From the IMG/VR virus record IMGVR_UViG_3300037590_000132, positions 1 through 54,419 of that record: a stretch of 54,419 nucleotides of DNA. One strand, given 5' to 3'. The DNA is from a virus. Its lineage: Duplodnaviria > Caudoviricetes. Position numbers and translations under genes: made by a program. The first letter of the stretch is position 1. Every line of letters starts with the position of its first letter. Under the pieces are notes generated by a model. The model was not told where the DNA came from. It ran no database searches and was given only the letters and a program-made list of their open reading frames with translations. Positions 6,282-33,766 of the stretch are shown here, in pieces.

Positions 6282-7340
6282 TCAGGTCAACAGTCCGGTC
6301 AAACGGAATCCGCTGGCCGATGCGGTGATAACGGGCTGTTGATCGTCGACCACGTGACCTTCGGTACGGCGGTGCTTTTCATCGTCGAAGGTTTGAACGC
6401 TCATGTCCTCTTTCAAGAACAGCGACAAGGTCGAGAACGATGGGCCGCCGCCAGGAGGTGCAACCAATCCGCCGGGTCGGGCCAACAAGTAAGCCACGCC
6501 ATCGGGCATGATGTAATCGGCCACTCTCGCAGACGCACCACGTCGACTGGTCACCTTCGTTGAATCTTCGATGACCGTGTCAACGCCGTACAACTTGGGC
6601 GGCAATCCGAATTCATCGAACCCGTCCGAGTCGCCTTGGCGAAGCTGTGGAAGCGAATATCGGCTTCCCTTCAAGTACTCGGCGATTTCCTGGGTGACCG
6701 CAATTGAGCGAGCAGTGTTGGGGTTCATCACCAGTACCATGTCTTTGCGACGAACGACGCTGAGGGTCGCTTTGATGATCACGTCCAAGGCATAGTTGAT
6801 GCTTTTCTGGATGAACTTGTTAACCGACGTTGCGGTGTCCCAAGCTCCGGTTACACCATCAATCGTGGTGACATCTTTGACGTGATCGGATTCCCAGTTT
6901 GCGTTGTTGCCAAGCACGCCGTGAACGCGAACGGTCCGTCCGGTCATCGCTTGCTGAGCTTTCATCGCCTCATGCGATTCGACGATGCCCCAGGCTGCTT
7001 GATCGCGAGCTTCGAAACCCAATTTATACGGGAAGTCGTACCGCTGGGTGTTGTACGGCAAAAACGAGAACATCTCGGTGCCGTCGTTGTTCTGTGGCCG
7101 GTCCGATCCATCAGGCCATACGAAATCCGATAGATTGGAATCCAGAATTCGACCGGCTTCTTCGGTCGTGATCTTCAAATAGAAGCCGCTCTTGAGCGAG
7201 ACTTCTCGTTGTTGAATGTACCGGTTGAGCGGGAAATCCTTGACGTTGCGGCTGAACCCAGTGACGAGCTTGTCGCTGCCTTCGCCGAAGGATCGAACGT
7301 AAGTGTTGTTGCCGCCTGGTAGGACCGGTGTGCTGGTCAT
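6282..7340 (-). CDS. Major capsid protein
   Basis: 352 aa, follows the protease and decoration genes. Contains the LVMNPxT and LPPKLYGV motifs typical of HK97-fold capsids. Confidence 0.75.
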   Translation of the reverse strand: MTSTPVLPGGNNTYVRSFGEGSDKLVTGFSRNVKDFPLNRYIQQREVSLKSGFYLKITTEEAGRILDSNLSDFVWPDGSDRPQNNDGTEMFSFLPYNTQRYDFPYKLGFEARDQAAWGIVESHEAMKAQQAMTGRTVRVHGVLGNNANWESDHVKDVTTIDGVTGAWDTATSVNKFIQKSINYALDVIIKATLSVVRRKDMVLVMNPNTARSIAVTQEIAEYLKGSRYSLPQLRQGDSDGFDEFGLPPKLYGVDTVIEDSTKVTSRRGASARVADYIMPDGVAYLLARPGGLVAPPGGGPSFSTLSLFLKEDMSVQTFDDEKHRRTEGHVVDDQQPVITASASGFRLTGLLT

Positions 7341-7386
7341 GGGATAAACTCCAGAGAGTGTCCCAGTTCCGTTGGTCGGTCACCGG
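7339..7386 (-). promoter_or_regulatory. Late-motif copy E, coupled to a hairpin that hides the capsid RBS
   Basis: CCGGT-GA-CCG-ACCAA-CGG-A-ACTGG overlaps TGGGACACTC-TCTG-GAGTTTATCCCA, which buries GGAG next to the ATG. Confidence 0.6.
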
Positions 7387-7464
7387 TTGGTTGAAATTTC
7401 GAAAGAAGTGGAGGTGTGAAGGAGAGGACTTGAAGGCGTTGATTGAAAAACGCCTCGGGCCGAA

Positions 7465-7866
7465 TCATGCGGAAGGCAAGGAACCGTAGCGAACGACGCA
7501 CTTGATCTTCTCGTTCGCTGCTGCAGCTGATCTCGCCACGGCGGAGTACTCGTCGCCAGCGACGGCCTTGATCGCTTTTCCATCGGCGTCTGGCTTCAAG
7601 GGATCACCCGCGGCGACGGTCGCACCCGCGACGACTTCGCAGGGTTCGCCCAGCCCATACACCTGGCAGGACTGCCCCGCTTCGGCGGCGTTTCCGCTGG
7701 CGCCGGGGATGGGGGCGGTGTTGGTGCCTTCTGCACTGACGCCAGCATTCGCAACGTCATCGGCGACACACTGCACCACGGAATTGTTTTCGCCAGCTTC
7801 AAGCTTGACGAATCGGCTCGGAAGAATATTCCCGCCGGCGATGTAGCTTGGGTTCGAATGGGGCAT
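7465..7866 (-). CDS. Capsid cement/decoration protein (DUF2190-like)
   Basis: Ala/Gly-rich 133 aa with AGATVAAGDPLKPDADGKAI, between the protease and capsid genes. Confidence 0.7.
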   Translation of the reverse strand: MPHSNPSYIAGGNILPSRFVKLEAGENNSVVQCVADDVANAGVSAEGTNTAPIPGASGNAAEAGQSCQVYGLGEPCEVVAGATVAAGDPLKPDADGKAIKAVAGDEYSAVARSAAAANEKIKCVVRYGSLPSA

Positions 7867-7905
7867 GGTTGTTGCCTAAAGTTGTGAAGTGAAGTTTGGT
7901 TGTTC

Positions 7906-7940
7906 AAAAGGCCCGGTTGGCCGCGTCAAACCAACCGGGC
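7906..7940 (-). terminator. Possible intrinsic terminator
   Basis: GCCCGGTTGG/CCAACCGGGC 10-bp stem followed by CTTTT on the minus strand. Confidence 0.45.
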
Positions 7941-8003
7941 GGACCATCGGGGCGTATGCTCCATCCGACACACGCCCAGCGTTGGTGATTCGAGAGAATG
8001 AAG

Positions 8004-9563
8004 TCAGTTCGTTCCGATTCGTTGCTTCGCTTCCGATTTCAGTTCGTCGTAAGTTCGGTATTCGCCTTTGTTGGCGTATTGGGCACTCAGCTGACGAATG
8101 ATTTGGGATTCTTCCGCTTGGTAGCGTGCCGTTTCTTGATCGGTTTGCTGACCAACCGGCATTGCACCTTGCGGAATTGCTTGCGTTTGCGTGATCGCTT
8201 TGGCGGCGTAACGCTCAATGACATCGCAATGCTGTTCAAACTGCGAATCATTCATGGTTGATCCAGCGGAGTACAAGCACTGATTCATTTCAGCGTCGAT
8301 GTCGATCGGCATACGACCAGCGATTTCCCGCAACCGAGACGAACGGACCGCATCAGTGCGTTCCACTTCCAGGGTCGCCAATCGGCTTTTGCTGTCAGCC
8401 AAATCATCAACCAGCGTTTGTTGGCCATTGGCCATCGCCTGATACTTGTCAGCGAGTGCCTGGTACTTCTCAGCGAGGTCTGATTCGCTGGAGTCGCCAA
8501 CCGTTTCAGGCTGTTCGTCAGATTGATAGCGTGGTGTTGGAGCGGGTTGACCGCCGACCATTCCGCCCATCGCCCCAAACTGCTGGGGAGGTCCGCCTGC
8601 GGGGCTGCTGCCAGGTTGGGTCCCACCAGCCGGTGTCCCGCCCGTGCCCATTTGCTGCAAAACCCATTGCATTGGTTCGGTGTTCATGACTCCGTCAATG
8701 ATTTTGCGGATCAGTGCGTTTTCGTCCATCGGAGCGGTTCCGTTTGGGTTGGGAGGGTCGGGTTGATTGTCGAATTTTTGGACGTGAGTGTTCCCGCCAC
8801 CTGGCAGTGCGGCAAAGGCTCCAGTCGGAGCGATTGCTTCATACCGATCAGCGACGACGTCGTGATTGACCGAAAAACGGTCCACGAACAGATCGCTTCG
8901 CCCATCTTCAGTGTTGACGGAGAACTGAACTGGAAGTGGTAGTCGTGGGGCTTCGCTAATCGCGGCGATTGGGTTGATGTAGCTGCGGCCGTTGGATTTG
9001 AGCGTCAAAACCTCAACGCTTCGACCGCCGCGGTCCGCCAGTTGATGAGCTTTGTCTTTTCGGATGTACTCATCACAAAAGATCGCCAGCCGAGGCTCCG
9101 AACGACCAATCATCCCTAGCCGGAACGGCCCGGAAACACCCACCGTGACCGGAGGCGACGGATCGCGTTGACCAGCTGGAACCGTGTGTCGATCAATGAT
9201 CGTTGGGTAAGCGTCCACGTCGAAGATTCGGTGATTATTTTCACCGACGATCTCGGACAATTTAGAAGCGTCGTACCGGCGGACTATCGGTTCCCCGTTC
9301 GCCCCGGTCGATGCTGCTTCATGTTCGGAGAAGTAGCAAACGTCTTCACGTTTGATGTAGCGATCGATCGGGTATTTTTTGTCAGCACGATCGCGTTCGC
9401 TATTTCCGTAAACAGCTGACCATGCTTCCCACGCAATGTGGTTTCGGTCCATTGGCTCGGGGACTACCGGCGATAGCTCTTGATGGGCACGCACGACAAA
9501 ATCCGCCTCCGACTCATTCGGTCTGGGAGCGATTTTTTTCGATAGTGATGTCAGTGCAACCAA
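8004..9563 (-). CDS. Putative prohead protease/scaffold protein
   Basis: Upstream of the decoration and capsid genes; globular N-terminus (IDRH..., RSVE) and a coiled-coil C-terminus. Start moved to TTG 9563 because 9579-9638 is a regulatory element. Confidence 0.65.
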   Translation of the reverse strand: MVALTSLSKKIAPRPNESEADFVVRAHQELSPVVPEPMDRNHIAWEAWSAVYGNSERDRADKKYPIDRYIKREDVCYFSEHEAASTGANGEPIVRRYDASKLSEIVGENNHRIFDVDAYPTIIDRHTVPAGQRDPSPPVTVGVSGPFRLGMIGRSEPRLAIFCDEYIRKDKAHQLADRGGRSVEVLTLKSNGRSYINPIAAISEAPRLPLPVQFSVNTEDGRSDLFVDRFSVNHDVVADRYEAIAPTGAFAALPGGGNTHVQKFDNQPDPPNPNGTAPMDENALIRKIIDGVMNTEPMQWVLQQMGTGGTPAGGTQPGSSPAGGPPQQFGAMGGMVGGQPAPTPRYQSDEQPETVGDSSESDLAEKYQALADKYQAMANGQQTLVDDLADSKSRLATLEVERTDAVRSSRLREIAGRMPIDIDAEMNQCLYSAGSTMNDSQFEQHCDVIERYAAKAITQTQAIPQGAMPVGQQTDQETARYQAEESQIIRQLSAQYANKGEYRTYDELKSEAKQRIGTN

Positions 9564-9578
9564 TTCAATGGCTCGTTG

Positions 9579-9638
9579 AAACGAAAAAAGCCACACGCCC
9601 CGAAGATGGGATGTGTGGCTCTGGTGGTCAGTGGCCAA
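9579..9638 (-). terminator. Late-motif copy C: antiterminator-like hairpin overlapping an intrinsic terminator
   Basis: TGGC-CA-CTG-ACCAC-CAG-AGCCACAC...GTGTGGCT-TTTTTCGTTT. Confidence 0.8.
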
Positions 9639-9649
9639 CGTCTAAAAAA

Positions 9650-9723
9650 TTGCGGAGACTGGATTTGAACCAGTGATCTCAAGGTTATGAGCCTTGCGGG
9701 ATACCAAGCTTCCCCACTCCGCC
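9650..9723 (-). tRNA. tRNA-Met(CAT), initiator-like
   Basis: GGCGGAG acceptor with a 1:72 mismatch, G11:C24 pair, CAAGG-CTCATAA-CCTTG anticodon arm, GGTTCAAATCC T arm. No encoded CCA. Confidence 0.92.
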
Positions 9724-9737
9724 ATGTGTTGTGACCG

Positions 9738-9965
9738 TCACGCGGTCAATCGTTCGTTTTTCTCTGTGTCGCCGATCGTCGTGATTGATCTGTCAATGAT
9801 TCCATCGTTGACTTGCACGGTTACTGCGACGGACCCGTACAGGTTTGGGTTGTAGTGAAGTTCTGATGTCAATCGTTGGCGAAGTCTTTCGCAAGCACGT
9901 TCGATACCAGCTTCGTTGGTTTGGTCCCGATTGATTTGTCGATTCGCCAGTTTCGGCATCGTCAT
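9738..9965 (-). CDS. Small DUF2292/YezD-like protein
   Basis: 75 aa from ATG 9965; YGSVAVTVQVNDGII resembles the YGSVxITVxDGxI pattern. Confidence 0.5.
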   Translation of the reverse strand: MTMPKLANRQINRDQTNEAGIERACERLRQRLTSELHYNPNLYGSVAVTVQVNDGIIDRSITTIGDTEKNERLTA

Positions 9966-9995
9966 CCCTGCGAAAAAGGTCTTTTGTTGGTCCAC

Positions 9996-10047
9996 TAAAA
10001 AAGCCACTTGCAAGTGATCCGCAAGTGGCTCCGATGATCGGTCACCA
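9996..10047 (-). terminator. Late-motif copy D plus terminator
   Basis: TGGT-GA-CCG-ATCAT-CGG-AGCCACTTGC...GCAAGTGGCT-TTTTT. Confidence 0.8.
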
Positions 10048-10063
10048 ACTCAATCAACAATTT

Positions 10064-12979
10064 TTATACCGCTGCCGTTGGGCTGTCAACAATCGAAGTG
10101 ATTCTTGATTGAAAGCGATCGATAAACGCATCCGCAAATTGGGTTGAAAACGGAACCGGTGATTCGTCTGGCTCTCCCCATTCAGCACCCATTTTGAAAG
10201 TTGGGTCATACTCATAGTCGGATGCCTTGCCGGTTGAGCTCATCATATCTTTGGCAAGAGCAAACACCTTCTCGTCTGTCTTCGATGGAACCTTTTCGAA
10301 GCCTTCTTTCAGACGACTAAACAAAGCGTTTTCTGAATCGCCGTTGCCAACTGATTCGGATCGACCGCCAGTGAGGAGCTGCGGGAACGAATCTTTTGCC
10401 ATATCGACCATCTCGTCAAACCGCGGGATCTGGCTTGCGTCACCTCCTTGCCCATGGGTTCGCCGGACAGCCTGAATGATCTGCGATGTTTTCTTGCCGC
10501 GGTACCCGAAGTTGCCAAGAAGCTGACGGAGATCGTCGTTCGTTTCTTCCGCTTCTGTGCGAATCATTTTGTGGGCATCGTCCATCAGGTCGCGGAACAG
10601 CGATACGTCATCGGGATGGTTGCCCGCATGATCAACGATCCTGTAGTCCAGGTCGGTGACGGGTTGGAACAACGGCTGTTGGTCACTGCTTTTCGTTCGA
10701 ATCCGATCCGAACGTTCGCCCTGGACAGATCGCGGATTCTTTCCACGCATCGAACGTGGTCCGCGGGACACCTTGTCCGATTCAATGAATACCGGATGAC
10801 CGTCGATTGTGACGAAACGTCCACGATCGCCTTTTGATCCAATTACTGTTCCGTCAGCCTCTTTTTGTTTTCCGCTTGTTGTTCTTTGGTTGCTGGTTTG
10901 TTTTGCAGCGGCTCGGTATCGGGCGATGGCAACTTCATCCCATCGGTGTAGACCGGCGGCATATCGTTGTCGCTCGGAAGCGACTGTGGTTTGGAGTCGG
11001 ATTCGCTCATATTTCCATCCAAAGTGTTGGGCTACCAGTTGGTTGACTTCGTGCCAATGTTCCGCACTCGCGATGTCGATCGCTTCAGATTGCGATTGGG
11101 AACCAGCCTTGGCTGCTTTTGCGATCTTAGACAAGTATCGATCTTTCACCAGCGAATCTTTCTCGTTGATGATCTTTTTTAAGATAGCTCGTCCGGATCG
11201 GGAGAGTTCCGAGTCGCCCATGTTGGGTTCAAAGATGAAAAGATATCCAGGCGAAATCACTCTCATCTGCTTCACGCCGTAATCAACCGCCACCATCATG
11301 TCGCCTGGTGAGAATGAATTCCCCATTCGCCGCGGGTTGTCTTCTGCGTGCTCCCAGCCGTTGGGATGATTGTGGGTCAAGATTGATCCTCGGAAGTGCT
11401 GTTTCGCTTCCTCAATCAAAAACGTTACCTGCGTTTTGCCACCGCTTTTGGACCAAAGCTCGTTGCCGTCTTCATCAAATGCGATCAGCTTTTCCGTCTT
11501 GCGGGTACGGATGGTCGTTTCGGCTCGATAGATCGCAGGATGGGTTTTGCCTCGCCCAACGTTCGCGTACACCACCGACTTAACTGGCAAAGCAGCCCTC
11601 GTTGCCTTCGGTTTCTTTGTCTCGGGTTTGACAGGGTTGTTCGAGTCAGAATCATCGCTGTCTTCAAACAGGTTCATCTGGCCGGGTGAGGCATCCAGTC
11701 CATTGATCAAGTTGGTTTGGCGTGCCGGCGGACGGTCAGACGACGATTGCTTCTCGCCTGACTGGGTCGCGAATTTTCCATCGCTTTGCCTTGGGTGCTT
11801 TGATTCGTCCCAATCAAACTTCTTTTGTGTTTTCGTTGACCGCAACGTTCCCTTTCCATCCACTCCGCTACTGAACAATCCGATTTGTCCAGGTGAATCG
11901 CGGTGGTTCGACATGTAGTGATCCATCGCCGCACTGAAAGACGTGATTGCGAATCGCTCGTGATCTTCAACTGGCCTGAACAACGAGTCGTTTGGCTTCA
12001 GTTTGGGAGCGAGGTTTCTTGGGATCATGTCGTTGTGGCGAATCACCGGTTTCAGATCGACCCCGCTTTCTCGGGCTTCTGCCAGGATGGTTTTCAGGTC
12101 TCCCATCAGCTTTTGAATGCCCGGTTGATCCACGTAGTTGTCCCATGCGTTTTTCTTCGCGGCGACCGGATCGCGATCATTTCGCTTTGCACCCTGAGCA
12201 ACCTGACCAACTGGCTGAACCTTTGCGGTCAAACTGTTGCTCCAATGCAAGAGTGCACTTCGGATTTGTTCATCTAGATGGCTGTGATGAAGCGGGTGTT
12301 CCTTCGGATCCGGTTCAGCCGCTTGCTCTGCCTTTAACGCTTCAACGTTCGCTTCCCACTGGCGGATCGCAGCTGCGGCCGGGCTCGCAGGCTCGTTGGT
12401 TCGTTTCGGTTCTGGCGGCTTCGGCGACTCTACCTTTGGCTTCGGATCTGCAGACGCTCCTGGCTTGCTAGTGAACTTGCCTCCGTCGCGTGGGTGTTTT
12501 GATTCGTCCCAGTCGAAAGTCGCTTGGCGAGCATCGTAGCGACTGACCTGATCGACGATCGGTTTTTTTCGACTTCCGTGTTTCAACCATGATCTGAATT
12601 GATCGATGGTCATCGTCGTGACGTTCCCGACTTTCCAATCGGCGGTATAGCATTTTCGATAAGCTGCAACAGCGGCTTCTTTGGATGGATACCCGATCAA
12701 AACCTTGTGTTCGTCAAATTCACCATCCAAGTTGGGTTGATCAATCACAACCACAAGTTGGATGTCTTTGTGTGGCCCGACGAACACGTCAACGTGATCA
12801 CCATCGGCTCCAGTCGTCCGCTTGATGTATCCGTAATCCGCAGACATCTTCGGCCAATTTGGACGCCGCCGGCATCCCCTTGGCGTTTCGATCGCAATAT
12901 CGAGACCGTGCAAACGGATGTGCTTCTTTCGATAGTTGCCGGCTTCGGCTTGTGCTGGCGTCGGTGTCATATCAAACAA
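10064..12979 (-). CDS. Polyvalent protein: inorganic pyrophosphatase-like domain, two WDESKHPR repeats, JAB/MPN-like domain
   Basis: YGYIKRTTGADGDHVDVFVG...FDEHKV; FDWDESKHPR..GKF twice; THNHP...SFSPGD; FVTIDGHPVFI. Confidence 0.75.
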   Translation of the reverse strand: MFDMTPTPAQAEAGNYRKKHIRLHGLDIAIETPRGCRRRPNWPKMSADYGYIKRTTGADGDHVDVFVGPHKDIQLVVVIDQPNLDGEFDEHKVLIGYPSKEAAVAAYRKCYTADWKVGNVTTMTIDQFRSWLKHGSRKKPIVDQVSRYDARQATFDWDESKHPRDGGKFTSKPGASADPKPKVESPKPPEPKRTNEPASPAAAAIRQWEANVEALKAEQAAEPDPKEHPLHHSHLDEQIRSALLHWSNSLTAKVQPVGQVAQGAKRNDRDPVAAKKNAWDNYVDQPGIQKLMGDLKTILAEARESGVDLKPVIRHNDMIPRNLAPKLKPNDSLFRPVEDHERFAITSFSAAMDHYMSNHRDSPGQIGLFSSGVDGKGTLRSTKTQKKFDWDESKHPRQSDGKFATQSGEKQSSSDRPPARQTNLINGLDASPGQMNLFEDSDDSDSNNPVKPETKKPKATRAALPVKSVVYANVGRGKTHPAIYRAETTIRTRKTEKLIAFDEDGNELWSKSGGKTQVTFLIEEAKQHFRGSILTHNHPNGWEHAEDNPRRMGNSFSPGDMMVAVDYGVKQMRVISPGYLFIFEPNMGDSELSRSGRAILKKIINEKDSLVKDRYLSKIAKAAKAGSQSQSEAIDIASAEHWHEVNQLVAQHFGWKYERIRLQTTVASERQRYAAGLHRWDEVAIARYRAAAKQTSNQRTTSGKQKEADGTVIGSKGDRGRFVTIDGHPVFIESDKVSRGPRSMRGKNPRSVQGERSDRIRTKSSDQQPLFQPVTDLDYRIVDHAGNHPDDVSLFRDLMDDAHKMIRTEAEETNDDLRQLLGNFGYRGKKTSQIIQAVRRTHGQGGDASQIPRFDEMVDMAKDSFPQLLTGGRSESVGNGDSENALFSRLKEGFEKVPSKTDEKVFALAKDMMSSTGKASDYEYDPTFKMGAEWGEPDESPVPFSTQFADAFIDRFQSRITSIVDSPTAAV

Positions 12980-15365
12980 CCAAGGTGGCGATGTTGGCGG
13001 TTCCAGATGCGGGCACCGTGATTTGCGTTCTCACTGCCCGTCCTTCGTAGGTGACAGAAATGTCGTAAGTCACACCCTGGATGAGATTGATCAGAATCAC
13101 CCCGCTCTCACTTTCAGCGGTCACCGTTGTCGGGAACACAAGCGATTCTGTGGTGAACGTCGCTTCCGATGCCGTCGCGGCCACCATCTTTGCCCCAGTG
13201 ATCGGAACATTGTGCGCCGTGACGACTTGCAGGGTACATTCGCAGTCGTCCTCTTCGGACAACGCCGGTGCGGTGACTTTTTCGAGCGAAACCGCCCGCG
13301 GAACATCATCCTCGACAACCGTGACTTCGATCGGCGTCGGAATCGAATAGCCGTAGGGTGGAATGATTCGGACCGTGTAAGTCGCGTTGTTCGGAACGTA
13401 GATTCGAGCAACGCCATCGATTCCGCTGATTTGCAGAGCGTAGCCGTTGATCTCGATTGCGACATTCGAAACTGGATCTTCGGTTTCGTCATCATCGAAG
13501 GTGAAAACGATTGCCGAGAAGGTGCTAGGAATCGATCCGCCGCCCCCACTGACCGACGAAACCGCGACGTCCAGGTTCGCACCAAAGCTGCCAGCGGTGT
13601 TGTGATCATCCGTCGCAGCATTCCACACGGCCGCCGCGTTCTGAGTCGCACTAGGCACATTGCCAAGTGCGGTTAGCACGTCATCGAGAACCGGGGCAGT
13701 GCCATCGACTGACGATCCATCACCAAACGAGGCGGTGTTGATGACTTCGCTAGCTTCGGGTGCGTGGTACGTCCCAGTGGTGCCAGACGCCGGGCCGTAG
13801 CTGACCGAATCCAATACGCTTGCAGCACTCGGCAAAACAACCGTCCCGGTCGTCGCATCGACGTTGACGCCAGATAGCACTTGTGCTGCCGTTGGCACAT
13901 AGCAAGTTCCCGTTGTGCCATCGCCGCGATCCACGCCGAATCGAACGTCAGACGCATTGGCGTAGGTTGGCGTTTCTTCGCCTGCCAGCAAAGCTGCGTA
14001 GGCCGCTTCGCCCAGTGCTTTCATCCCTGCCGCGTCATAGTGAACGTCGTCAACTTTCAACGTCATCGCGTCTGTGTCAATCCAAGACGTAGCGGCGTCC
14101 ATCGACCCGACCACCTCTTGATACTTGCGGACATCGGCGACACCAGAAGCATCGAACGCCGGATCTTCTTCGCGAATCCTTGCCACGCAGAACTTGGCCG
14201 AAGCATCGCCCATTTGTTCGCGGTATTTTTCGATTAAGGGTCGCAGGTTCTCGCCGTACTCCGCACCGTAGGCTGCTGACGTTGCGTCTTGCTCACCTTG
14301 CATCCACAGCACACCAGCCAAGTCCGGGCCGATCCCAGCATTGAGCATGTCGGCCTCCACCGTCCAAAGGTTACGCATGGCCAAATTGAATTTGTTTGCA
14401 GACGCCTCGTCGTCCAGTGACCAATCATTCGCACCTGTGTTAGCGAGGTAGCTGCTGCCGACACCATACTTTGAGATGTATAGCGTTTGGCTCGCGTCCT
14501 CGGCCTCCCACGCTAGTCCCATCTCAGGACCAAAATCCGTCGCGGGCGCGTCGGTTTGGTTGTTGGTGCCCATCACCAACGCAGCGGTGGTCAGTGTGTC
14601 GCGGCTGCTGATATAGACGTTTGCGGGAGTTGTTTTGAGTTGGTCGCCTGCCGAAAGATTCGCGATTTTCGCACGGCCCTCTGCGTTGCTTTGACCCCAG
14701 ACCCCAACGAGCTTTGCAGTCGAGGGGCAATCCCGATAGTCAATGTAGAAGGATCGTGATGCCGCAAGCTGCCTTGCCATAAAGTAGATACGCTGACGTT
14801 CCGCATCCGTCAGAACATTGTCAAAGACGGCAGCCCACGCGATCCCAAAATCCGCCAAGCGGCTCGTCGTAGTCGAGTGTCTGCCACCCCACCCAAAAAT
14901 CGTGTTGTACGCCTGGGAATACTCGGCAAACACTACGACCCAATTGCCGCGATTAACCCGATATGCGACTTGGCCGTTCGAATCACGACGGTAAATCGGG
15001 ACCACGCCACGCACGGACCCGGTGTGAAATTTTGGAAACACCGACGGGTCCACAGTCTGCGGGAACGTGCCGTACCCGCTGCTCAGACCACCGCTAATAA
15101 GGAATCCTCCGTTTTCGCCCTTGCCTGTCCGGCACAAGAGAACAACCGTCCGCGCCCCTGTAATGCTTGGCGTCTGGATCAATCCACTCGCAAGCGAAAT
15201 GCCCTCGGTTTCCCAGGTGTAGTTGGGGTCAGTCGGGGTTGTTAGATCAATGTCGCTTGACCCGACTTCGTCGGCAACAGTCGTGCCGCTGCCTTCGCCG
15301 AAATGCCACTCCGAAATCAACGCACCGTTTTCGGGATCGGTCAGTCGGTAATCTGTCCAGGCCAT
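12972..15365 (-). CDS. Virion-associated sialate O-acetylesterase-type (SASA) protein with lectin-like and Ig-like parts
   Basis: GQSNAEG, WMQGEQD and DDVHY SGNH blocks; N-terminal WHFGEGSGTTVAD LamG-like start; TTGTxxxPxAxxV repeats. Confidence 0.75.
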   Translation of the reverse strand: MAWTDYRLTDPENGALISEWHFGEGSGTTVADEVGSSDIDLTTPTDPNYTWETEGISLASGLIQTPSITGARTVVLLCRTGKGENGGFLISGGLSSGYGTFPQTVDPSVFPKFHTGSVRGVVPIYRRDSNGQVAYRVNRGNWVVVFAEYSQAYNTIFGWGGRHSTTTSRLADFGIAWAAVFDNVLTDAERQRIYFMARQLAASRSFYIDYRDCPSTAKLVGVWGQSNAEGRAKIANLSAGDQLKTTPANVYISSRDTLTTAALVMGTNNQTDAPATDFGPEMGLAWEAEDASQTLYISKYGVGSSYLANTGANDWSLDDEASANKFNLAMRNLWTVEADMLNAGIGPDLAGVLWMQGEQDATSAAYGAEYGENLRPLIEKYREQMGDASAKFCVARIREEDPAFDASGVADVRKYQEVVGSMDAATSWIDTDAMTLKVDDVHYDAAGMKALGEAAYAALLAGEETPTYANASDVRFGVDRGDGTTGTCYVPTAAQVLSGVNVDATTGTVVLPSAASVLDSVSYGPASGTTGTYHAPEASEVINTASFGDGSSVDGTAPVLDDVLTALGNVPSATQNAAAVWNAATDDHNTAGSFGANLDVAVSSVSGGGGSIPSTFSAIVFTFDDDETEDPVSNVAIEINGYALQISGIDGVARIYVPNNATYTVRIIPPYGYSIPTPIEVTVVEDDVPRAVSLEKVTAPALSEEDDCECTLQVVTAHNVPITGAKMVAATASEATFTTESLVFPTTVTAESESGVILINLIQGVTYDISVTYEGRAVRTQITVPASGTANIATLVV

Positions 15366-15386
15366 TTTTAACTCTTTCGGTGTCTA

Positions 15387-16112
15387 CTATTGGTCTGATG
15401 ATGGTATGGCTGATCGCAATAGCTTGGACCAAATCTTGTTGCCAACCGCGTTCAAATGGAGTCCGTCCGCGATGCACTTATCGTTGTCGAGGCGACCGTC
15501 GCCATCACTGTCGAGCGATGGAGTCGCGTCTACGAAAACAAAATTTGCTTGCGATTGCGCTGCTGACAGTTTTGAGTTGATGCGGCTAATTCGATCAGTA
15601 AATCCAACCATCGCCGGATCGAGTTCCGTGTTGACTGGCAATAGCGACGAAACAAAAACTTGTTGGGTCGTAATGTTGCCAACGATTGCAATGATGCCCT
15701 CGACGATGGCATCGTCTGACTTCTTGGCCAAGTCATTGATGCCGATCGCGAGGAAAACAAACTTCGCACGCCGAATTGAACTTTCGTATTTCGGTAATCG
15801 TTCAACAACACCATCAATTGTGTCACTTCCAATTCCGTAGTTCACAGCTCGATCGCAGACAGCATCAACGCTCATGCCTTGTATGAGGCTATCTCCGATA
15901 AATATCCCGCAGCCGTCAGGCAATGCCCCGTCGGATCGCTTGTGATACTCGACCATTCGGTCAAAGAACGTGTTTTGGCTAGCCGCAGCAACTTGGCCGG
16001 TAAGCTTCACTAGCACGCGCGGAATGACCTGGTCATGCCACACGATCGCAGCTAATGCGGCGTGAATAAAAACGAGGTAGGAAACCAGGACGATTCGTGT
16101 TTGTTTTTTCAT
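15387..16112 (-). CDS. Membrane-anchored GDSL/SGNH hydrolase
   Basis: N-terminal TM helix; FIGDSL, NYGIGSD, AIGIND, DGLHLN. Confidence 0.9.
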   Translation of the reverse strand: MKKQTRIVLVSYLVFIHAALAAIVWHDQVIPRVLVKLTGQVAAASQNTFFDRMVEYHKRSDGALPDGCGIFIGDSLIQGMSVDAVCDRAVNYGIGSDTIDGVVERLPKYESSIRRAKFVFLAIGINDLAKKSDDAIVEGIIAIVGNITTQQVFVSSLLPVNTELDPAMVGFTDRISRINSKLSAAQSQANFVFVDATPSLDSDGDGRLDNDKCIADGLHLNAVGNKIWSKLLRSAIPSSDQ

Positions 16113-16234: not shown

Positions 16235-17782
16235 TTAGGCTGATTTGTTGACCGCGTTGGCATGGAACTCTGACATGACATCGTTGAACGCTTTGTCCAG
16301 GTCCAAGACGGCCGGTTTTGTTGATCCGATTGGTTGTGAATTCCCCGCTCCAGCAATGCCTTGGCCAGCTGAGCTCAAAACGTCGTCACTGACGTCAGGC
16401 ATTGATGCACCAATCGTGTCATAGACTTCGCTTGACTTGATCTTCAGACCCATGTCGTAAGCTTTTTTGTATGCTTCCATCTTGGCGGCGATGTTCGGTG
16501 ATTCCGTGTCAATTCGGAACCTTGGTTGCATCCGCCAGAGTGATGGGAAGTTGGCTGTCTGGATGGTGCGAACAAAATCGTTCGTGATCGTCTCTTCCAG
16601 ATTGCGTGCGTCGTACTCCACGATGTCAGCAAACGTCGCCATGTGGGCATCCGCAACACCACTTCCAAGACCAGTTGAATCAGCTTCACTGGTGAGCGTT
16701 TGCCCCAAAATGTAACGCTTGATGCGATGACCAAAATAACTTCGGATGATATCGATCGTGGTCGAAACACCACCCAGTCCTGGTTCAATCAGTTGCGGCA
16801 TGAATCGATCTGGGTGATCATCGGGTGGAAGAGGTGCCAAAATTACCGTCCGACCGCCCCCCATCGCTTCGTGAGCGGCCCGCTCGGTGTCTTCTTGTGA
16901 CTTCGGATTCCCAGATTGATAAGGCCAGATCTCGATACCAAAAGCGGCTCGGTCAAGATATTCAACAACACGCTGAAGACACTCCACCATTGCATACCAT
17001 GTCCAGTAAATCCGATCGCGGATTCCCACGCCGTGGATACGACCTGCCATCACTGGATCCTGGTAAGGACCATCTTCGATTTGGTGCTTGTGGAGCAGCA
17101 TTGTCTTTCGCTGCCACGGATTCAGCCAGTAAACCAGCCCCTGTTCGGTTGGCTCAATCTGCCGAACGATATCGCCCGTTCGCGGGTCGCGGTAGCTTCG
17201 TTGACCTTGCCATGCTGCGTGCACTCGAATGCCGACTTGGTCCTCGTCGGCGGTATAGGATCCATCGTTGTAGCGAAACACCAACTTGTCGCCGTGGCGA
17301 GGTTCCCACACTTTCGCGATCGTTCGATACTGTCCTTTCACAAGGGACGGACGGTACCGAATCACATTCGCGTACCGCCCATACCAGATTGCTTCCATTG
17401 CTGTTCGCCGAAACTCAGTGAATCGTGGAGTCGCTTCCATGATGTCATTGAGCATCGCACACAAAGCAAGTTCATCTTGATTGTTGCTGTCTTCTGGTTC
17501 GATGTGCCAATTCAACAGAGCAGTGGCACGCTGTCGGGCTTCGATGCACTCCATGATCCCGCAATCAGCACGCATTCGCTCCGCGTTCGATCGGCTATCG
17601 CGAAGAGCTTCATCCAGGTTGAGGTAGGACTGGGAAATGATTCCCCGTCGCCCGCCGACCGTGTGGATATGGGGAAGCCAATCTTGCCCAAAATTGGGCG
17701 ATGCTCCAAGGATTCCTTCAGCAGGATCTCGCTGTGACTGCTGGATCACTCGGGCTGGCAGCTGATTGGGACTGAGCGTCAT
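16235..17782 (-). CDS. Portal protein (Mu gp29/DUF935-like)
   Basis: AIWYG and ILGQTLTSE...GLGSGVADAH motifs; 515 aa. Confidence 0.85.
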   Translation of the reverse strand: MTLSPNQLPARVIQQSQRDPAEGILGASPNFGQDWLPHIHTVGGRRGIISQSYLNLDEALRDSRSNAERMRADCGIMECIEARQRATALLNWHIEPEDSNNQDELALCAMLNDIMEATPRFTEFRRTAMEAIWYGRYANVIRYRPSLVKGQYRTIAKVWEPRHGDKLVFRYNDGSYTADEDQVGIRVHAAWQGQRSYRDPRTGDIVRQIEPTEQGLVYWLNPWQRKTMLLHKHQIEDGPYQDPVMAGRIHGVGIRDRIYWTWYAMVECLQRVVEYLDRAAFGIEIWPYQSGNPKSQEDTERAAHEAMGGGRTVILAPLPPDDHPDRFMPQLIEPGLGGVSTTIDIIRSYFGHRIKRYILGQTLTSEADSTGLGSGVADAHMATFADIVEYDARNLEETITNDFVRTIQTANFPSLWRMQPRFRIDTESPNIAAKMEAYKKAYDMGLKIKSSEVYDTIGASMPDVSDDVLSSAGQGIAGAGNSQPIGSTKPAVLDLDKAFNDVMSEFHANAVNKSA

Positions 17783-17800: not shown

Positions 17801-17859
17801 AAACGAAAAAAGCCCGCTCTCGCTGGGTTGCGAAAGCGGGCTCCGGTGGTCGGTTGCCG
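17801..17859 (-). terminator. Late-motif copy B plus terminator, upstream of the portal gene
   Basis: GGC-AA-CCG-ACCAC-CGG-AGCCCGCTTTCGC...GCGAGAGCGGGCT-TTTTTCGTTT. Confidence 0.85.
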
Positions 17860-17886
17860 TTTGATTGTCGTCCGATCATCTTAGCG

Positions 17887-19252: not shown

Positions 19253-19258
19253 AACGCG

Positions 19259-20128: not shown

Positions 20129-20130
20129 GA

Positions 20131-20589: not shown

Positions 20590-22082
20590 CGTCTTCGTTC
20601 TCCCATGCCGAACAGTCGGCGAGTTTGAGCACGTTGCAGTGCCGCCAGTGCCCCGAAACGTTCGGGATGCGACTTTGCGTGTGATTTGGTTGCCGGTGGG
20701 CGGGCCGCGAAGATCTTACCTTTCAGGCGATTGAACGCGCCCGAGGCTGCGTCAACTTGGTCAGCTTGCGATGATTCAGGAAACGCAACGAGCTCTTCGA
20801 TGAAGTCTGAATTCCAAGATCCACGAACCAAGTGAACGTTTCCTGCTTCAGCCTGCCCTGCCAATGGCATTGCTCTTGTGATCTTGGCTTCACCTGGAAG
20901 AGAAACGCTTCCATCCATCCGTCGCTGTTTGCCGCCAACAATATCACGCTGAACCGCGAACCTGCCAAGGTTGGTGATCATCTGGTGCATCACTTCTTTG
21001 CCGCCTGATCCACCTTCTTGTTCTGCCACAATCACGACTTCACCTTGGTACCGACGCTGGTCCAATTCCGCTGTCTGCTCAATGATGACATCGCGTTCGT
21101 GATAGCTGTATTGCCCTCGCACAACATCTTCGATGTACACCATTCCGCGTGGGTCCAGTGCCATCAGCAAACCGGCTGTAAACGATCCGGCGCCGGCCGT
21201 TGCGGCTTTGTCCCAGTATCGAACACGTAACGCATCACGAGGGGCTTCGTCGACCAAGTGGAACCAACCACGACTGAACATCAAACCTGCGATGTCCAGG
21301 AATTCACCTTCCAATTCCTGTTCGGCAAGCCGCGATGACATGTTGCCGCGAAGCGTGTCGTAAAACTCTGGAGGGTTGAATGGGTTATCGCGGCTTGTAG
21401 CGTGGATCAACTGCGTGTTTGGTTTCGGTCGATACGGTTTTCCGCCGATCCAGACGATGCCATCTACTGAGCATCCATCGGTTCCGAGAATACGCTCGTC
21501 GATCGTTTCGAACAGGACATCAAACGTCCAATTCGTTTTTCCCTTGGGTGTGAACGTTGCAAGACATGGCCCCATTCTCCCTCGCCATCGAAGTGTGGGG
21601 ATCGCGTCCAAAAACACATCCTTGTGTTGCAAGCTCGCTTCATCGATCCACAACCCTGCCTTGTTTGATCCGTGAAGCTTTTTGGGCTTTTCGCCTGATC
21701 GAAACACAACTTCCGCTTGGCCACCATCGCGAGTTCGAAACTTCACCCGCGGGTAAGGTGACAGTTTGTGATCGACATAGCATCCAAGCAGGCGAGACAC
21801 TTCCAGGAACGTTGGTAGCGTGGTTTCTGTGACGACGCCTGAGTCGGGGGAAACCGCCATCCATGGATCACCATCCTTGGCGTGCTTGCAGATGAAATGA
21901 GCACCCACACGAGTTTTGCCAGCACCGCGTCCAGCACAAAAAGCGGTCAACCAATCTTCGCTGGATAGAAAACTGGCTTGCTTGGCGGTCACTGGCACGG
22001 GGCGAACTGTCATCGCACCCATGAGGTTTTCGCCTCCGAGAATTGTGAGCAAGCAGAACGCAAGTGAACCCAAACCATTCAT
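20586..22082 (-). CDS. terL: Terminase large subunit
   Basis: Walker A AGRGAGKT, Walker B WIDEA, nuclease motifs YWDKA and DQVDA. Confidence 0.95.
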   Translation of the reverse strand: MNGLGSLAFCLLTILGGENLMGAMTVRPVPVTAKQASFLSSEDWLTAFCAGRGAGKTRVGAHFICKHAKDGDPWMAVSPDSGVVTETTLPTFLEVSRLLGCYVDHKLSPYPRVKFRTRDGGQAEVVFRSGEKPKKLHGSNKAGLWIDEASLQHKDVFLDAIPTLRWRGRMGPCLATFTPKGKTNWTFDVLFETIDERILGTDGCSVDGIVWIGGKPYRPKPNTQLIHATSRDNPFNPPEFYDTLRGNMSSRLAEQELEGEFLDIAGLMFSRGWFHLVDEAPRDALRVRYWDKAATAGAGSFTAGLLMALDPRGMVYIEDVVRGQYSYHERDVIIEQTAELDQRRYQGEVVIVAEQEGGSGGKEVMHQMITNLGRFAVQRDIVGGKQRRMDGSVSLPGEAKITRAMPLAGQAEAGNVHLVRGSWNSDFIEELVAFPESSQADQVDAASGAFNRLKGKIFAARPPATKSHAKSHPERFGALAALQRAQTRRLFGMGERRR

Positions 22083-22672
22083 GCGGGCTTCGTTTGTTTT
22101 TGGAATTCTTCGAGAGAGTAGATTTTCTCGAATTGTTCCTTTTCTTTTGCGTTGTTGATGACGATTTCGACTGCGTTTACGGTGACGGAATTATTCTCTG
22201 TCACATCGGAATCAAGCATGCCGAGAATTTGACATTCAGTTCGCAGGATGGACTCCAGTCGCTGCAGAAAACGAGGGTCGCCAGCGGTTGTTTTTCGCTT
22301 TCTTCCACGTCGTTCGAAATTCCCATCCTTGGTTTCATTCGATTCTTTGCTGATGATCGATTCGGGTCGAAGGCTTCGCTTCCATCCTTCCCATGCTGCT
22401 GCACGAATCGCGTTCAATTCAGCCAGTTTTTCTGGTAATCGCTCTTCGTATGTCTTGGCTGCTTCAGACTTCCATTCTTTGCGAGCCCGCATTAAATCTT
22501 TCGAAACGGTATGAACAGAAACACCGATCTCACGACCGATCTGACGCATCGATGACCCCTGAAGGAACATCGTTGCAACGCGTGCTTGTCGTTCCTCGCT
22601 GATCACAGTCATGTGCAGGTTCTTGGCGTGAGTCGGCTTGCGATTGATTCTGTCGAGAGTTTCTTGGTCCAT
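22079..22672 (-). CDS. Putative terminase small subunit
   Basis: N-terminal HTH (SMRQIGREIGVSVHTVSKDL), directly upstream of terL. Confidence 0.75.
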   Translation of the reverse strand: MDQETLDRINRKPTHAKNLHMTVISEERQARVATMFLQGSSMRQIGREIGVSVHTVSKDLMRARKEWKSEAAKTYEERLPEKLAELNAIRAAAWEGWKRSLRPESIISKESNETKDGNFERRGRKRKTTAGDPRFLQRLESILRTECQILGMLDSDVTENNSVTVNAVEIVINNAKEKEQFEKIYSLEEFQKQTKPA

Positions 22673-22680
22673 GGGCTACT

Positions 22681-23676: not shown

Positions 23677-23731
23677 TGGTGATTCCTAATTCGATTCGTG
23701 GTTGGTTCGTGAATTGACTAATTGATGGGCG

Positions 23732-24588: not shown

Positions 24589-24593
24589 GTCGA

Positions 24594-25451: not shown

Positions 25452-25453
25452 CT

Positions 25454-25867: not shown

Positions 25868-26694
25868 CCGACTGCCACCCGTGGTTTGACGCTGACGATT
25901 GCCAATTGCTCGAATGCGGTCGCCTTCGATTCAGCGAGTACGCCGCATCCTTCTTTTCCGTACTTGATCGTCCAACTGTTGACGAACTTGATTCCGAACT
26001 TGCCGGGAGAAATCATCACGATCTTGACGCCGTAAACGAGGTGATCCCACCAAGCGAGACCCATCGTCGCCGGGCATGGTCGCTCCGGATCCAGGATGCA
26101 AGACGCCAGTGCATCGAAGTTGTTTCGCTCGAGTTCTTCAACGACGATCGCGTCGTGCATCTTTGCCGAAAGCTCGACTTCGTGATTCTCGACCAGCGAT
26201 CCGTTCTTGACGTTTTCGGGCCAAGCAGCTTCTTCCGGCATTCCCCATTTGTTGACGTACTTTTTCGCTTCACCGCCGAATCCGCCGACGTTGCGTCCGC
26301 CTTTGCCCAACCAGGCTGGCATGAACGGATTGAGCCGCAGGCCTTTGATGCCCATCTGAGCGTAGGCGGTGTTCATCGCACCACCGAAGCCGTACATCCA
26401 GCAATAGCCCCAGTTGGCTTGATTCATCACCGGAACGCCGGCGTGAATGCGATGATGGTCTGGTGATGATTTGTTCTCTTCGTGATGGCGGATCAGATCC
26501 GGCCATTCTTTCCGAGGAATGATCGATCGACTGAACGGCGAACCGAAGCCGGTCTTTACCTCCGAAGATTCGAAACCGGACCGAAACGGGTTGCGGTCAT
26601 CGTCGAAGACTTTGACGAAATCGCTGGCGTTGGAATCGTCGATGACTGGCAGTTTTTGGCCATCTTCGACCATTCCGAATTCGGTAACGTTCAT
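25864..26694 (-). CDS. Papain-like (C1) cysteine peptidase
   Basis: NQANWGYCW (Gln/Cys), WWDHLV (His), FVNSW...YG..G (Asn). Confidence 0.9.
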   Translation of the reverse strand: MNVTEFGMVEDGQKLPVIDDSNASDFVKVFDDDRNPFRSGFESSEVKTGFGSPFSRSIIPRKEWPDLIRHHEENKSSPDHHRIHAGVPVMNQANWGYCWMYGFGGAMNTAYAQMGIKGLRLNPFMPAWLGKGGRNVGGFGGEAKKYVNKWGMPEEAAWPENVKNGSLVENHEVELSAKMHDAIVVEELERNNFDALASCILDPERPCPATMGLAWWDHLVYGVKIVMISPGKFGIKFVNSWTIKYGKEGCGVLAESKATAFEQLAIVSVKPRVAVG

Positions 26695-27194
26695 CGCTCG
26701 GTTTCCAGTGCGGATTTGAAATCGTCGTGAGTCTCTGGCAATGGACCAGTGACCAATCGCCCGTCGTTGAGCGTCGTCAGAGATGGAGCGGCCGCCGCGT
26801 TGTCGCGGATCTTCTTCCAGATGGGTTCGGCTGTTTCAAGCTTGTCATCGACGTCCAAACGTCGGAACGCGAAGCCGGCAGCTTCGGCTGATTCATCGCT
26901 GATCGATGACGTCAAGACATTCTTTTGGCCGTCAGTCAGATCCTTTTGCCCCGCTTCGCTCTTGTCTTGTAGGATCATCGCGAACTTTCCGGCTTCATCG
27001 ATGACGATCGAATCATCATCCGGCGATGGACCGGGAATCGGCGAACAGCCTTGGTTGCTCATGAACATCCAGACGAGTGCACAAGCCAAAACGATCACAA
27101 TCCAATTGACCTTCGGTCCTGGCTGGTTCGCCGCAGCTTGATACTGCGGCCATGACGTTGGCGCCGTTGAATCGGCAAAGATATCGACGCTCAT
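26691..27194 (-). CDS. Membrane/lipoprotein-like protein
   Basis: ATGA-coupled start at 27194; WIVIVLACALVWMF...GC followed by a Pro-rich linker. Confidence 0.65.
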   Translation of the reverse strand: MSVDIFADSTAPTSWPQYQAAANQPGPKVNWIVIVLACALVWMFMSNQGCSPIPGPSPDDDSIVIDEAGKFAMILQDKSEAGQKDLTDGQKNVLTSSISDESAEAAGFAFRRLDVDDKLETAEPIWKKIRDNAAAAPSLTTLNDGRLVTGPLPETHDDFKSALETER

Positions 27195-27811
27195 TTGGTA
27201 GTGCTCGTTGAACGCGAACGGGAACGTGTGGTTTTCGCGGGTGCCTTCTCCTTGGCCGCCAACTTGGCTTGCAGTTCCGCGACCTGTTTCTCGAGCTCTT
27301 CCGGAGAAGGCGGGAACATGTCGGGATGATGATCTTCCAAGCGGATCAATCTTGATTCGAAGCCTGAAAGCAGTTCGTTGAGCTTCGCTGGGTCGATCGA
27401 CTTGGTCGTCTCCACCGGAAGCGTCACCGAAGAGGATCGTCTTCCAGACAAGCTTGCACGTGTGCCAGCCATCCAATCGCCAGCTCCAGCGAACACGGGC
27501 CCAACGTTGCCGCGGATGAACTTGACCAACGCGAAGAAGCAGATGCCAACCAAGCCGATGGCATCGAGAAGGAACGGCAGAAGGCCGTATGGTGATCCGA
27601 ATCCAGCTTCTGGAACTGGTCGGCCCATCGCGTTGAATGCGAACGCCGAAAACCATCCAGCCGAGAAGGCCTTGATCGAAACGGTAATGACGATCGCACC
27701 AACGATGATCTGTGCCGCCTTGTTGAACGAAAGGGTGTCAACCAGGCCGGGTGCTTTCATCTGGTGATCGACGGTCCCTGTTACGTTCACGGTTTGCTGA
27801 GGTTGGTTCAT
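27191..27811 (-). CDS. Two-TM membrane protein with a coiled coil
   Basis: Two hydrophobic helices and a basic tail. Confidence 0.65.
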   Translation of the reverse strand: MNQPQQTVNVTGTVDHQMKAPGLVDTLSFNKAAQIIVGAIVITVSIKAFSAGWFSAFAFNAMGRPVPEAGFGSPYGLLPFLLDAIGLVGICFFALVKFIRGNVGPVFAGAGDWMAGTRASLSGRRSSSVTLPVETTKSIDPAKLNELLSGFESRLIRLEDHHPDMFPPSPEELEKQVAELQAKLAAKEKAPAKTTRSRSRSTSTTK

Positions 27812-28074
27812 GATCCAGGTTCCCCTTCCAGGAATCCGCCACTTGGAATGGTGGCAAATCGGTTTTTGATCCAGTAAGCAATCAATTCGATTGCGAGCTT
27901 GATGGCGACACCGATCAAGATCGATCCGATGATCGAATTCATCGACGAACGAACAGCGTGTTCGGCCCTTGAGCGAGCGACCGCAGGATCGTCCGTGCTC
28001 GCGAATGCCTTTCGAGCAAGTTCACGAACTTGCAGTCTTCGTCGCGATCCAAGCAGTCGGTATGACGATTTCAA
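27808..28074 (-). CDS. Small membrane protein
   Basis: GAGGA RBS and TTG at 28074; IIGSILIGVAIKLAIELIAYW. Confidence 0.6.
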   Translation of the reverse strand: MKSSYRLLGSRRRLQVRELARKAFASTDDPAVARSRAEHAVRSSMNSIIGSILIGVAIKLAIELIAYWIKNRFATIPSGGFLEGEPGS

Positions 28075-28087
28075 AACAGTCGTCCTC

Positions 28088-28145
28088 AAACGAAAAAAGC
28101 CCCTCCGAGAATTGATCTCGAAGGGGCTCCGGTGGTCGGTTGCCG
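28088..28145 (-). terminator. Late-motif copy A plus terminator, at the head of the late region
   Basis: GGC-AA-CCG-ACCAC-CGG-AGCCCCTTCGAGA...TCTCGGAGGGGCT-TTTTTCGTTT. Confidence 0.85.
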
Positions 28146-33754: not shown

Positions 33755-33766
33755 AGTGTCCTCGAT

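Follow-up and report, generated by a model that had tools for sequence, protein, structure and literature searches.

In the BglG/SacY/LicT family of antiterminators, a promoter is followed by an imperfect hairpin, the ribonucleic antiterminator (RAT), which overlaps the 5′ arm of a terminator ahead of the regulated genes and is too weak to form without its protein. Here we analyze a hairpin with a similar layout, present in five copies (c1 to c5) in a provirus of the Caudoviricetes, IMG/VR record IMGVR_UViG_3300037590_000132 (the entire record of 54,419 nucleotides (nt), hereafter the window). The RAT hairpin is about 29 nt long and has a different consensus. Unlike RAT, the hairpin described here measures 20 nt and occurs at several sites per phage genome, some of them terminator-less, and a six-frame search of the window at E ≤ 0.1 gave 0 matches to the RNA-binding domain CAT_RBD (PF03123).

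The RNA targets of the ANTAR proteins (NasR, AmiR, EutV) offer a second comparison. They too are short hairpins with small loops, their 3′ element overlaps the leader terminator, and their first loop base is A. ANTAR targets are two tandem hexaloop hairpins, whereas ours is a single hairpin with an internal loop. Their loops start with A and have a conserved G as the fourth base; in our 18 aligned copies, that fourth base is A or C. The ANTAR domain itself (PF03861) had 0 matches in a six-frame search of the window. In phage lambda, a constitutive-type promoter closely followed by a terminator (PR′–tR′) gates the late genes, with a regulator-like gene immediately upstream and small membrane-protein genes first downstream, and the window shows a similar arrangement. 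However, Q works processively from a single DNA site, whereas here the signal would be an RNA repeated at each terminator. The lambda N signal, boxB, is likewise a small RNA hairpin; it has a purine-rich, GNRA-like pentaloop with boxA upstream, unlike the loops found here (ACCAC, ATCAT, ACCAA and AACAA).

Two further phage systems act through RNA. The zinc-finger protein Com of phage Mu binds a short hairpin in the mom mRNA, immediately 5′ of an inhibitory helix that encloses the start codon, and thereby turns translation on, as described in PMC6483171. The head genes of the window are also Mu-like, and in the predicted folds of some relatives leader copies of the hairpin would compete with helices holding the Shine–Dalgarno (SD) sequence or the AUG. 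Unlike the Com site, most copies face terminators and not start codons, and Zn_ribbon_Com (PF10122) had 0 matches in the window at E ≤ 1, where unrelated zinc-ribbon proteins are present. The put element of phage HK022 is about 70 nt long and forms two stem-loops. It is a cis-acting RNA located upstream of terminators, whose termination it suppresses (PMC9378689). In contrast to the hairpin, which is fused to each terminator, put acts without a protein, processively and once per operon. By this comparison, the hairpin would work like RAT/BglG or ANTAR antitermination and would be placed like the lambda PR′–tR′ gate, but it fails the defining protein and RNA features of each family. If it has a protein partner, the system might be a previously undescribed late-gene switch of Planctomycetes phages, an idea that we put forward only tentatively.

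A covarying hairpin fused to late-strand terminators

When the window was scanned for GGYNACYGAYCAHCRGARCY, allowing up to two mismatches, exactly five matches were found, none of them with a mismatch and none on the plus strand. The chance expectation was 0.06 in shuffled sequences, and 0 of 100 shuffles attained five. Our final covariance model, run with filters off, scored the five copies at 26.6–30.2 bits, and the next-best match in the window reached 15.8 bits. A first-pass annotation of this DNA had already placed five minus-strand copies, with coordinates accurate to within 1–2 nt. The copies are as follows.

c1: 28125..28144, minus strand, hairpin GGC AA CCG ACCAC CGG A GCC (30.2 bits)
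c2: 17839..17858, minus strand, hairpin identical in sequence to c1
c3: 10027..10046, minus strand, hairpin GGT GA CCG ATCAT CGG A GCC
c4: 9617..9636, minus strand, hairpin GGC CA CTG ACCAC CAG A GCC, with an inner stem compensated relative to c1–c3
c5: 7365..7384, minus strand, hairpin GGT GA CCG ACCAA CGG A ACT, in the capsid leader, without a terminator

The 15.8-bit match is a near-copy on the plus strand, GGTACCGAACAACGGAAGCC, at 54244-54263 (E = 0.055 for the window). It lies inside an open reading frame (ORF; 54120-54419) near the right end, has no terminator behind it and is nearly identical to a copy in the related phage contig G001; it is unclear whether it is a chance match or a sixth copy.

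The motif consists of an outer 3-bp helix (GGY/RCC), an internal loop with 2 nt on the 5′ side and one invariant A on the 3′ side, an inner helix of 3 bp, and an A/C-rich hairpin loop of 5–6 nt that starts with an invariant A. For comparison we used five related phage contigs (G001–G005) and a prophage (G006) within a 1.13-Mb Planctomycetaceae contig, inspecting the regions upstream of terminators and capsid start codons without requiring a hairpin. The relatives repeat the layout, with outer strands of 3 bp, 1–3 nt, an inner stem of 3 bp, a loop of 5–8 nt, the single A and the outer 3′ strand.

That the inner stem covaries, as the first-pass annotation had claimed, could hardly be said of the window alone, where pairing is perfect and covariation is not significant (4 distinct rows; 74 of 500 shuffles equal it). 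Once the relatives were added, the support became strong. The covariation set comprised 18 copies of exactly 20 nt, aligned without gaps, from 8 genomes (17 of them distinct), most of which had been found by anchoring on terminators or capsid starts. All 102 pair cells (102/102) hold standard pairs. Both sides have changed from the commonest pair in 16 cells, as against 3.8 in shuffles, and the covariation score was attained by 0 of 500 shuffles. Sliding the 3′ partners by 1–3 columns lowered pairing to 16–46%. An alignment of 24 covariance-model hits, which is fitted to the model, gave the same covariation result.

Four positions are invariant: G2, A9 (the first loop base), A17 (the 3′ bulge) and C19. 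The inner stems vary widely, also within single genomes: CCG/CGG and CTG/CAG in the window; CGG/CCG, TGG/CCA and CAG/CTG in G002; CGA/TCG, CGC/GCG, CAA/TTG and TCG/CGA in G003; and TTG/CAA and CCG/CGG in G006. Ten of the 102 pair cells hold G-U or U-G. The opposite strand would be mismatched at these cells, so they point to the sense RNA as the structured species. The late-gene strand carries 36 of the 38 covariance-model hits over 1.55 Mb. Together, the invariant bases, the sense-only G-U pairs and the strand bias favour a sense-strand RNA over a DNA site. A covariance model and a search of other phages had been suggested as a check, and they show that the covarying sense-strand hairpin recurs in Planctomycetota phages and prophages.

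These data bear most directly on the idea that the motif is read as DNA, either as a double-stranded site for a late activator or repressor (like those of Mu C, P2 Ogr or the mycobacteriophage stoperators) or as a single-stranded hairpin promoter. Multiple copies in a single orientation before late gene blocks, inner arms that form a dyad, and a two-zinc-ribbon gene adjoining c1 would all suit such a site. Yet inner-stem identity changes within the window, G002 and G003 while complementarity is kept, and it is only on the sense strand that G-U pairs are common. Moreover, leader copies have an SD 12–20 nt downstream, so the motif is transcribed or itself lies at +1, and the spacing between motif and T-tract differs by about 8 nt among copies, a poor match to what a phased activator site would need. 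We therefore regard a DNA-level site as very improbable.

A different small hairpin, with a 5-bp stem and CAACCA in its loop, was seen at 1650-1700 of contig L102 (about 71190-71250 of G002). It lies a few nt upstream of a strong terminator and shares no bases with it; it may be a diverged relative of the motif.

Copies c1–c4 each run straight into an intrinsic terminator with a G+C-rich stem of 11–12 bp, a loop of 5–6 nt and a T6 tract, as follows.

28088..28127, minus strand: terminator of c1, 12-bp stem, 5-nt loop, T6 then CGTTT
17801..17841, minus strand: terminator of c2, 12-bp stem, 6-nt loop, T6 CGTTT, with the portal ATG (17782) 18 nt later
9997..10029, minus strand: terminator of c3, 11-bp stem, 5-nt loop, T6
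9579..9619, minus strand: terminator of c4, 12-bp stem with one mismatch, 6-nt loop, T6 CGTTT

In all four, the GCC that ends the motif forms the first three bases of the terminator 5′ arm, and the stems are otherwise unrelated in sequence, which bears out the earlier description of four copies sharing GCC with differing T6 terminators. Counting A-U and G-U pairs, in which the GGA before GCC pairs with the first U residues, the stems reach 14–15 bp. Across the family, we classified 30 non-redundant model hits, after dropping 3 identical duplicates and 5 hits with E > 0.54. In 17 of the 30, a strict test found that the terminator 5′ arm begins exactly at the last three nt of the motif; 3 further hits have bulged terminators by eye, and 3 are doubtful.

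This exact register bears on the possibility that the hairpin is a boxB-like loading site, at which, as with lambda N at nut, a factor would be recruited to the elongating RNA polymerase and make it resistant to terminators over a short or long range; the overlap with the terminator would then be incidental. A loading site has no need for a terminator stem that starts exactly at the last three nt, as it does in all terminator-fused copies examined, and processive antitermination needs no site per terminator. The loops are A/C-rich and mostly G-free, as opposed to the boxB type, and no N-like protein was recognised in the window (N proteins are hard to detect, and no N model was run). On the other side, the hairpin is small with a conserved loop, as boxB is, and the terminator-less copies in head-gene leaders (c5, G004, G006, L152, L207, L199) fit a modification of the polymerase. 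On balance, we consider a loading site unlikely.

We then applied one terminator finder and one architecture test to every sequence set. The hairpin was found on 15 of 25 late-strand terminators in five phage genomes, on 1 of 11 terminators of other strands in the same genomes, and on 0 of 23 terminators in 400 kb of the host chromosome of G006; it is thus a phage-specific feature. By genome, the late-strand counts were as follows.

G000: hairpin on 4 of 5 late-strand terminators
G001: 2 of 2
G002: 2 of 7
G003: 5 of 7
G006: 2 of 4
G004 and G005: no late-strand terminators found

The remaining strong minus-strand terminators of the window (39116 and 31072, early region) are without the motif. 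The T-tracts of most hairpin-linked terminators run on as TTTTTTCGTTT (minus strand, 28088-28098, 17801-17811 and 9579-9589), a tail that also occurs in G003, G006, L151, L183, L202 and L206, and 3 of the 4 occurrences of TTTTCGTTT in the window are at hairpin-linked T-tracts. A perfect palindrome of 26 nt, with arms of 11 bp around a 4-nt centre and with T5 behind it, lies at 39091-39116 between divergent gene blocks; it could be an operator or a two-way terminator.

Taken alone, the hairpin is the best fold of its 24-nt segment (−6.7 to −9.1 kcal/mol), and the complete terminator folds at −23.6 to −30.9 kcal/mol. Forcing the hairpin costs 7–8 kcal/mol and leaves a 9-bp stem with an unpaired GGC between stem and U-tract. 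A 9-bp stem set off from the U-tract in this way should not terminate. As the terminator fold is the more stable one, the default state would be 'stop', and the hairpin would need help to win.

The same energies speak to the opposite idea, that of a termination helper or insulator. With or without a bound factor (a lysogeny protein, for example), the hairpin would increase termination and keep the late genes silent, and read-through would come about by other means. Emerging immediately ahead of the terminator, it could pause the polymerase or recruit a termination factor, and it is found on late-strand terminators only. However, on paper these terminators are strong to begin with (−24 to −31 kcal/mol, T6), the conserved outer helix competes with the terminator foot, and the terminator-less copies would be left unexplained. 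We judge this role to be quite unlikely.

Promoter-like sites upstream of the hairpin-terminators

Two of the copies in the window are preceded on their own strand by a sigma-70-like site.

28198..28226, minus strand: sigma-70-like site at c1, TTGACA-17-TAATAT, 10/12, ending 53 nt upstream of c1 and overlapping the 3′ end of gene 28212-28670
10060..10089, minus strand: sigma-70-like site at c3, TTGACA-18-AAAAAT, 10/12, ending 13 nt upstream of c3

The association was then measured in 33 copies, 26 terminator-fused and 7 leader-type (the 30 classified hits minus the 3 doubtful ones, plus 6 earlier copies). A sigma-70-like site ends 0–100 nt upstream of 10 of the 33, c1 and c3 among them, and all ten are terminator-fused (10/26); several phages in this set are related to one another, so that not all ten count as independent. 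Dinucleotide shuffles of the 130-nt upstream windows gave a mean of 1.1 of 33 and a maximum of 5 in 200 rounds; 2 sites were obtained when these windows were read in antisense, and the same-strand background was 0.015 per window. The presence of promoter-like sites upstream of the hairpin-terminators is a new observation of this work. It reinforces the resemblance to BglG/RAT or ANTAR architecture that had been pointed out in the first-pass annotation, since such sites are found at c1, c3 and eight copies in other phages.

Downstream, the SD and ATG of the next gene lie about 15–30 nt past the T-tract, with the SD often directly behind it, which leaves no room for the gene's own promoter. Consequently, with a promoter-like site upstream and no room for one downstream, the unit consists of a promoter, a hairpin leader, a terminator and genes. 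On sequence grounds, this cassette has the layout of factor-controlled leader terminators.

The cassette also raises the question of whether the hairpin serves RNA stability or processing, as a recognition or protection module at transcript ends (forming a double hairpin with the terminator at the 3′ end, or standing alone at the 5′ end of the capsid mRNA), or marks genes for short regulatory RNAs. Promoter-hairpin-terminator units would give RNAs of about 60–150 nt, and A/C-rich loops beside a U-tailed terminator resemble small RNAs (sRNAs) bound by chaperones. Two copies follow a tRNA-Met gene, which is a processing location, and leader copies lie near the probable 5′ ends of head-gene messages. 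Against this, the essential portal and head genes begin 15–30 nt past T-tracts with no promoter room, which obliges the polymerase to get beyond the terminators. Nor would a stability role by itself account for a GCC shared so exactly by the two helices, and loops that vary within one genome (ACCAC, ATCAT, ACCAA) would be odd for a base-pairing seed. A stability, processing or sRNA role thus seems to us an improbable explanation.

Alternative sigma promoters (sigma-54 and extracytoplasmic function types, compared by eye with their general consensus) were considered and rejected, as there is no conserved second element. GTTTCA upstream of leader copies showed no enrichment in the window.

A model for late-gene control and its candidate factor

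Our model, in which we place about even confidence, is that the hairpin is a factor-stabilised antiterminator in late-gene leaders. By default, the terminator, more stable by 7–8 kcal/mol, would win and transcription would stop in the leader. A trans-acting factor, most likely an early protein of the phage, would clamp the hairpin and withhold the GCC foot; the remaining 9-bp stem would end 3 nt short of the U-tract, and RNA polymerase would read through to the late genes. At the terminator-less copies (c5 and its equivalents in relatives), the bound hairpin would probably control how well the head-gene mRNA is translated or how stable it is. What the data show directly is the hairpin with its covariation, its fusion to terminators, its association with promoter-like sites and its restriction to the late strands of phages; read-through, the factor behind it and any effect on translation are inferred.

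Several observations weigh against this model. The overlap between hairpin and terminator is just 3 nt, or 6 nt when the weak GGA/UUU pairs are counted; even so, the two folds are mutually exclusive, as had been stated in the first-pass annotation. Neither c2 nor c4 has a sigma-70-like site, and the sites described above are pattern matches to the sigma-70 consensus, which may not be that of Planctomycetota. The hairpin-free terminator at 31072 also stands directly before a gene, the primase, so closeness of terminator and gene is by itself no proof of regulated read-through. Seven of the 30 classified hits have no terminator and are instead followed by an SD and ATG within 50 nt, as head-gene leaders. 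The complete genome G004, which has terminal repeats, has a leader-type copy only and no strong terminator. Given these terminator-less copies and G004, antitermination cannot be the hairpin's sole role and is perhaps not its original one. Finally, no binding protein for the hairpin turned up among the families searched in the window.

The leader-type copies themselves suggest a second, translational role. In the window, c5 is followed after 12 nt by the SD GGAG (7349-7352) and after a further 8 nt by the ATG at 7340, which places it 24 nt before the capsid start codon. Equivalents of c5 precede the capsid gene in G004, G006, L152, L207, L199, G003, G005 and L139, and the scaffold-like gene in G002. 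We folded nine leaders and read the results by eye: six of the best folds have the SD/AUG region paired with part of the hairpin. The z-scores ranged from −0.9 to −4.0, and four of the nine folds were matched by at most 4 of 200 shuffles. The fold of the c5 leader falls short of significance (z = −0.89; equalled in 40 of 200 shuffles).

The search for a partner covered the protein families that act on comparable sites. In addition to the domains named above, Antiterm (PF03589) had no match in a six-frame search of the window. Phage_antitermQ (PF06530) gave a sub-threshold match of 12.5 bits, against a cut-off of 26, in the helix-turn-helix (HTH) of ORF 22079-22672 in the late region; this HTH also matches sigma region 4 and HTH families. 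The first-pass remark that no BglG, ANTAR, Q or N homologue is visible thus stands for ANTAR, CAT_RBD and PF03589, is qualified for Q by the sub-threshold PF06530 match, and for N carries the limit already given.

By position, a weak candidate for the trans-acting factor is a protein encoded just upstream of c1.

28212..28670, minus strand: P0001, 152 aa, with two CxxC...CxxC zinc ribbons

Homologues of P0001 sit after the primase gene in G004, L152 and G006. A set of 5.8 billion proteins held no homologues; P0001 matched no known family, had no informative Atlas neighbours and matched one PHROG, which is unannotated. It is possible, and in our view rather doubtful, that a single phage RNA-binding protein, perhaps of the P0001 family, uses the hairpin both at terminator feet and to free the ribosome-binding site (RBS) of head genes. 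If this were true, multi-site passive antitermination and RBS release would switch on the transcription and translation of virion genes together.

To our knowledge, almost nothing is known about gene regulation in Planctomycetota phages. If a protein partner is found, the system would be a new class of antiterminator, and the hairpin-protein pair would be a compact, portable means of terminator control. The motif can also be used as a marker of late-operon boundaries in this phage group.

Distribution and genome context

Further relatives were collected through the capsid: an IMG/VR scan returned 322 relatives, 80 of which were kept, and many of them hold further copies of the hairpin, in which AACAA is the prevailing loop. 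A comparison with 50,697 deposited phage records gave no relative for this group's capsid. A capsid search of genome contigs yielded nothing, and a portal alignment yielded 26 loci, of which 21 are in metagenome-assembled genomes (MAGs) labelled Planctomycetaceae, Pirellulaceae, Pirellulales or Thermoguttaceae, and 5 carry other labels. When covariance model R2 was run on five whole Planctomycetes MAGs, scoring 150 first-look candidates per genome, each gave 0–1 match, one of them within the prophage.

Rfam 15 at gathering thresholds matched two tRNAs only in the whole window, and at E ≤ 5 the region 7200-10200 gave a tRNA plus one chance-level sRNA match (19.6 bits against a gathering score of 40). 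The Rfam search that had been proposed therefore came back empty for the hairpin: the motif family, well supported and laid out as promoter, hairpin, terminator and late genes, is absent from Rfam 15. We found no description of the hairpin in the literature, though it may be listed without a function in the supplement to PMC10690425, which catalogues about 10,000 IMG/VR candidates for structured RNAs.

A degenerate 16-mer search of IMG/VR was discarded, as its 89 single hits were by context nearly all chance matches in coding sequence. The only contig among them that looked similar, the unrelated L019, carries ACCGATCACCGGAGCC at 12856-12871 on the minus strand, followed by a G+C-rich hairpin with a T-rich tail.

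The minus strand of the window begins with the early genes: two of the integrase family, a D5-like primase-helicase and the 152-aa two-zinc-ribbon protein, after which comes c1. Then follow a small protein with a hydrophobic stretch, a block of unknown genes, the HTH protein, the large terminase and c2; the portal, a GDSL lipase, a SASA esterase, a 971-aa protein and c3; a 75-aa gene, tRNA-Met and c4; a conserved head gene of about 500 aa without a family match, a scaffold-like gene (phrog_673) and c5; and finally the major capsid gene, a Mu gp36-like gene and the tail genes. The features adjoining the hairpins are these.

27808..28050, minus strand: first gene after c1, a small protein with a hydrophobic stretch, whose homologues come after the equivalent hairpin-terminator in L132 and G006
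16235..17782, minus strand: portal gene, downstream of c2 (Portal_Mu, 3e-40)
9649..9724, minus strand: tRNA-Met gene, ending 12 nt before c4
6282..7340, minus strand: major capsid gene, downstream of c5 (Atlas model, TM score 0.71 to a Phage_cap_E cluster)

The first-pass labels of portal and capsid agree with these matches, and its 'DUF2292-like' and 'protease' labels were not upheld by Pfam and PHROGs. Of the members of the Atlas cluster matched by the capsid, 70% carry PF03864, and the capsid is conserved in all five relatives. An AlphaFold2 model of the capsid built from 7 sequences was useless (predicted local distance difference test, 37.9), and PDB profile searches with the capsid and P0001 alignments gave nothing significant.

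Some further features were seen near these genes. A tRNA-Met gene ends 10–14 nt before a hairpin-terminator unit in two different phages, the window and L161 (G006), in the latter upstream of the first hairpin. On the plus strand, ARAGORN reports a tRNA at 42568-42640 whose anticodon has four bases (ttgc) and whose type is undetermined (Rfam tRNA, 50.4 bits); it overlaps the start of ORF 42565-42960. In the early region, the likely anti-defence gene 33041-33775 (minus strand) encodes 244 aa and matches Tad4, the domain of a type I Thoeris inhibitor (2.4e-29). Between the portal and the head genes, 10064-16112 (minus strand) encodes the GDSL lipase, a 797-aa SASA sialate-esterase protein and the 971-aa protein, which has an N-terminal InPase domain, and these are unusual cargo for a head module. 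Just upstream of c2, in the late region, 17887-18624 (minus strand) encodes a DnaJ-domain protein (6.7e-17) with homologues in L138 and L139.

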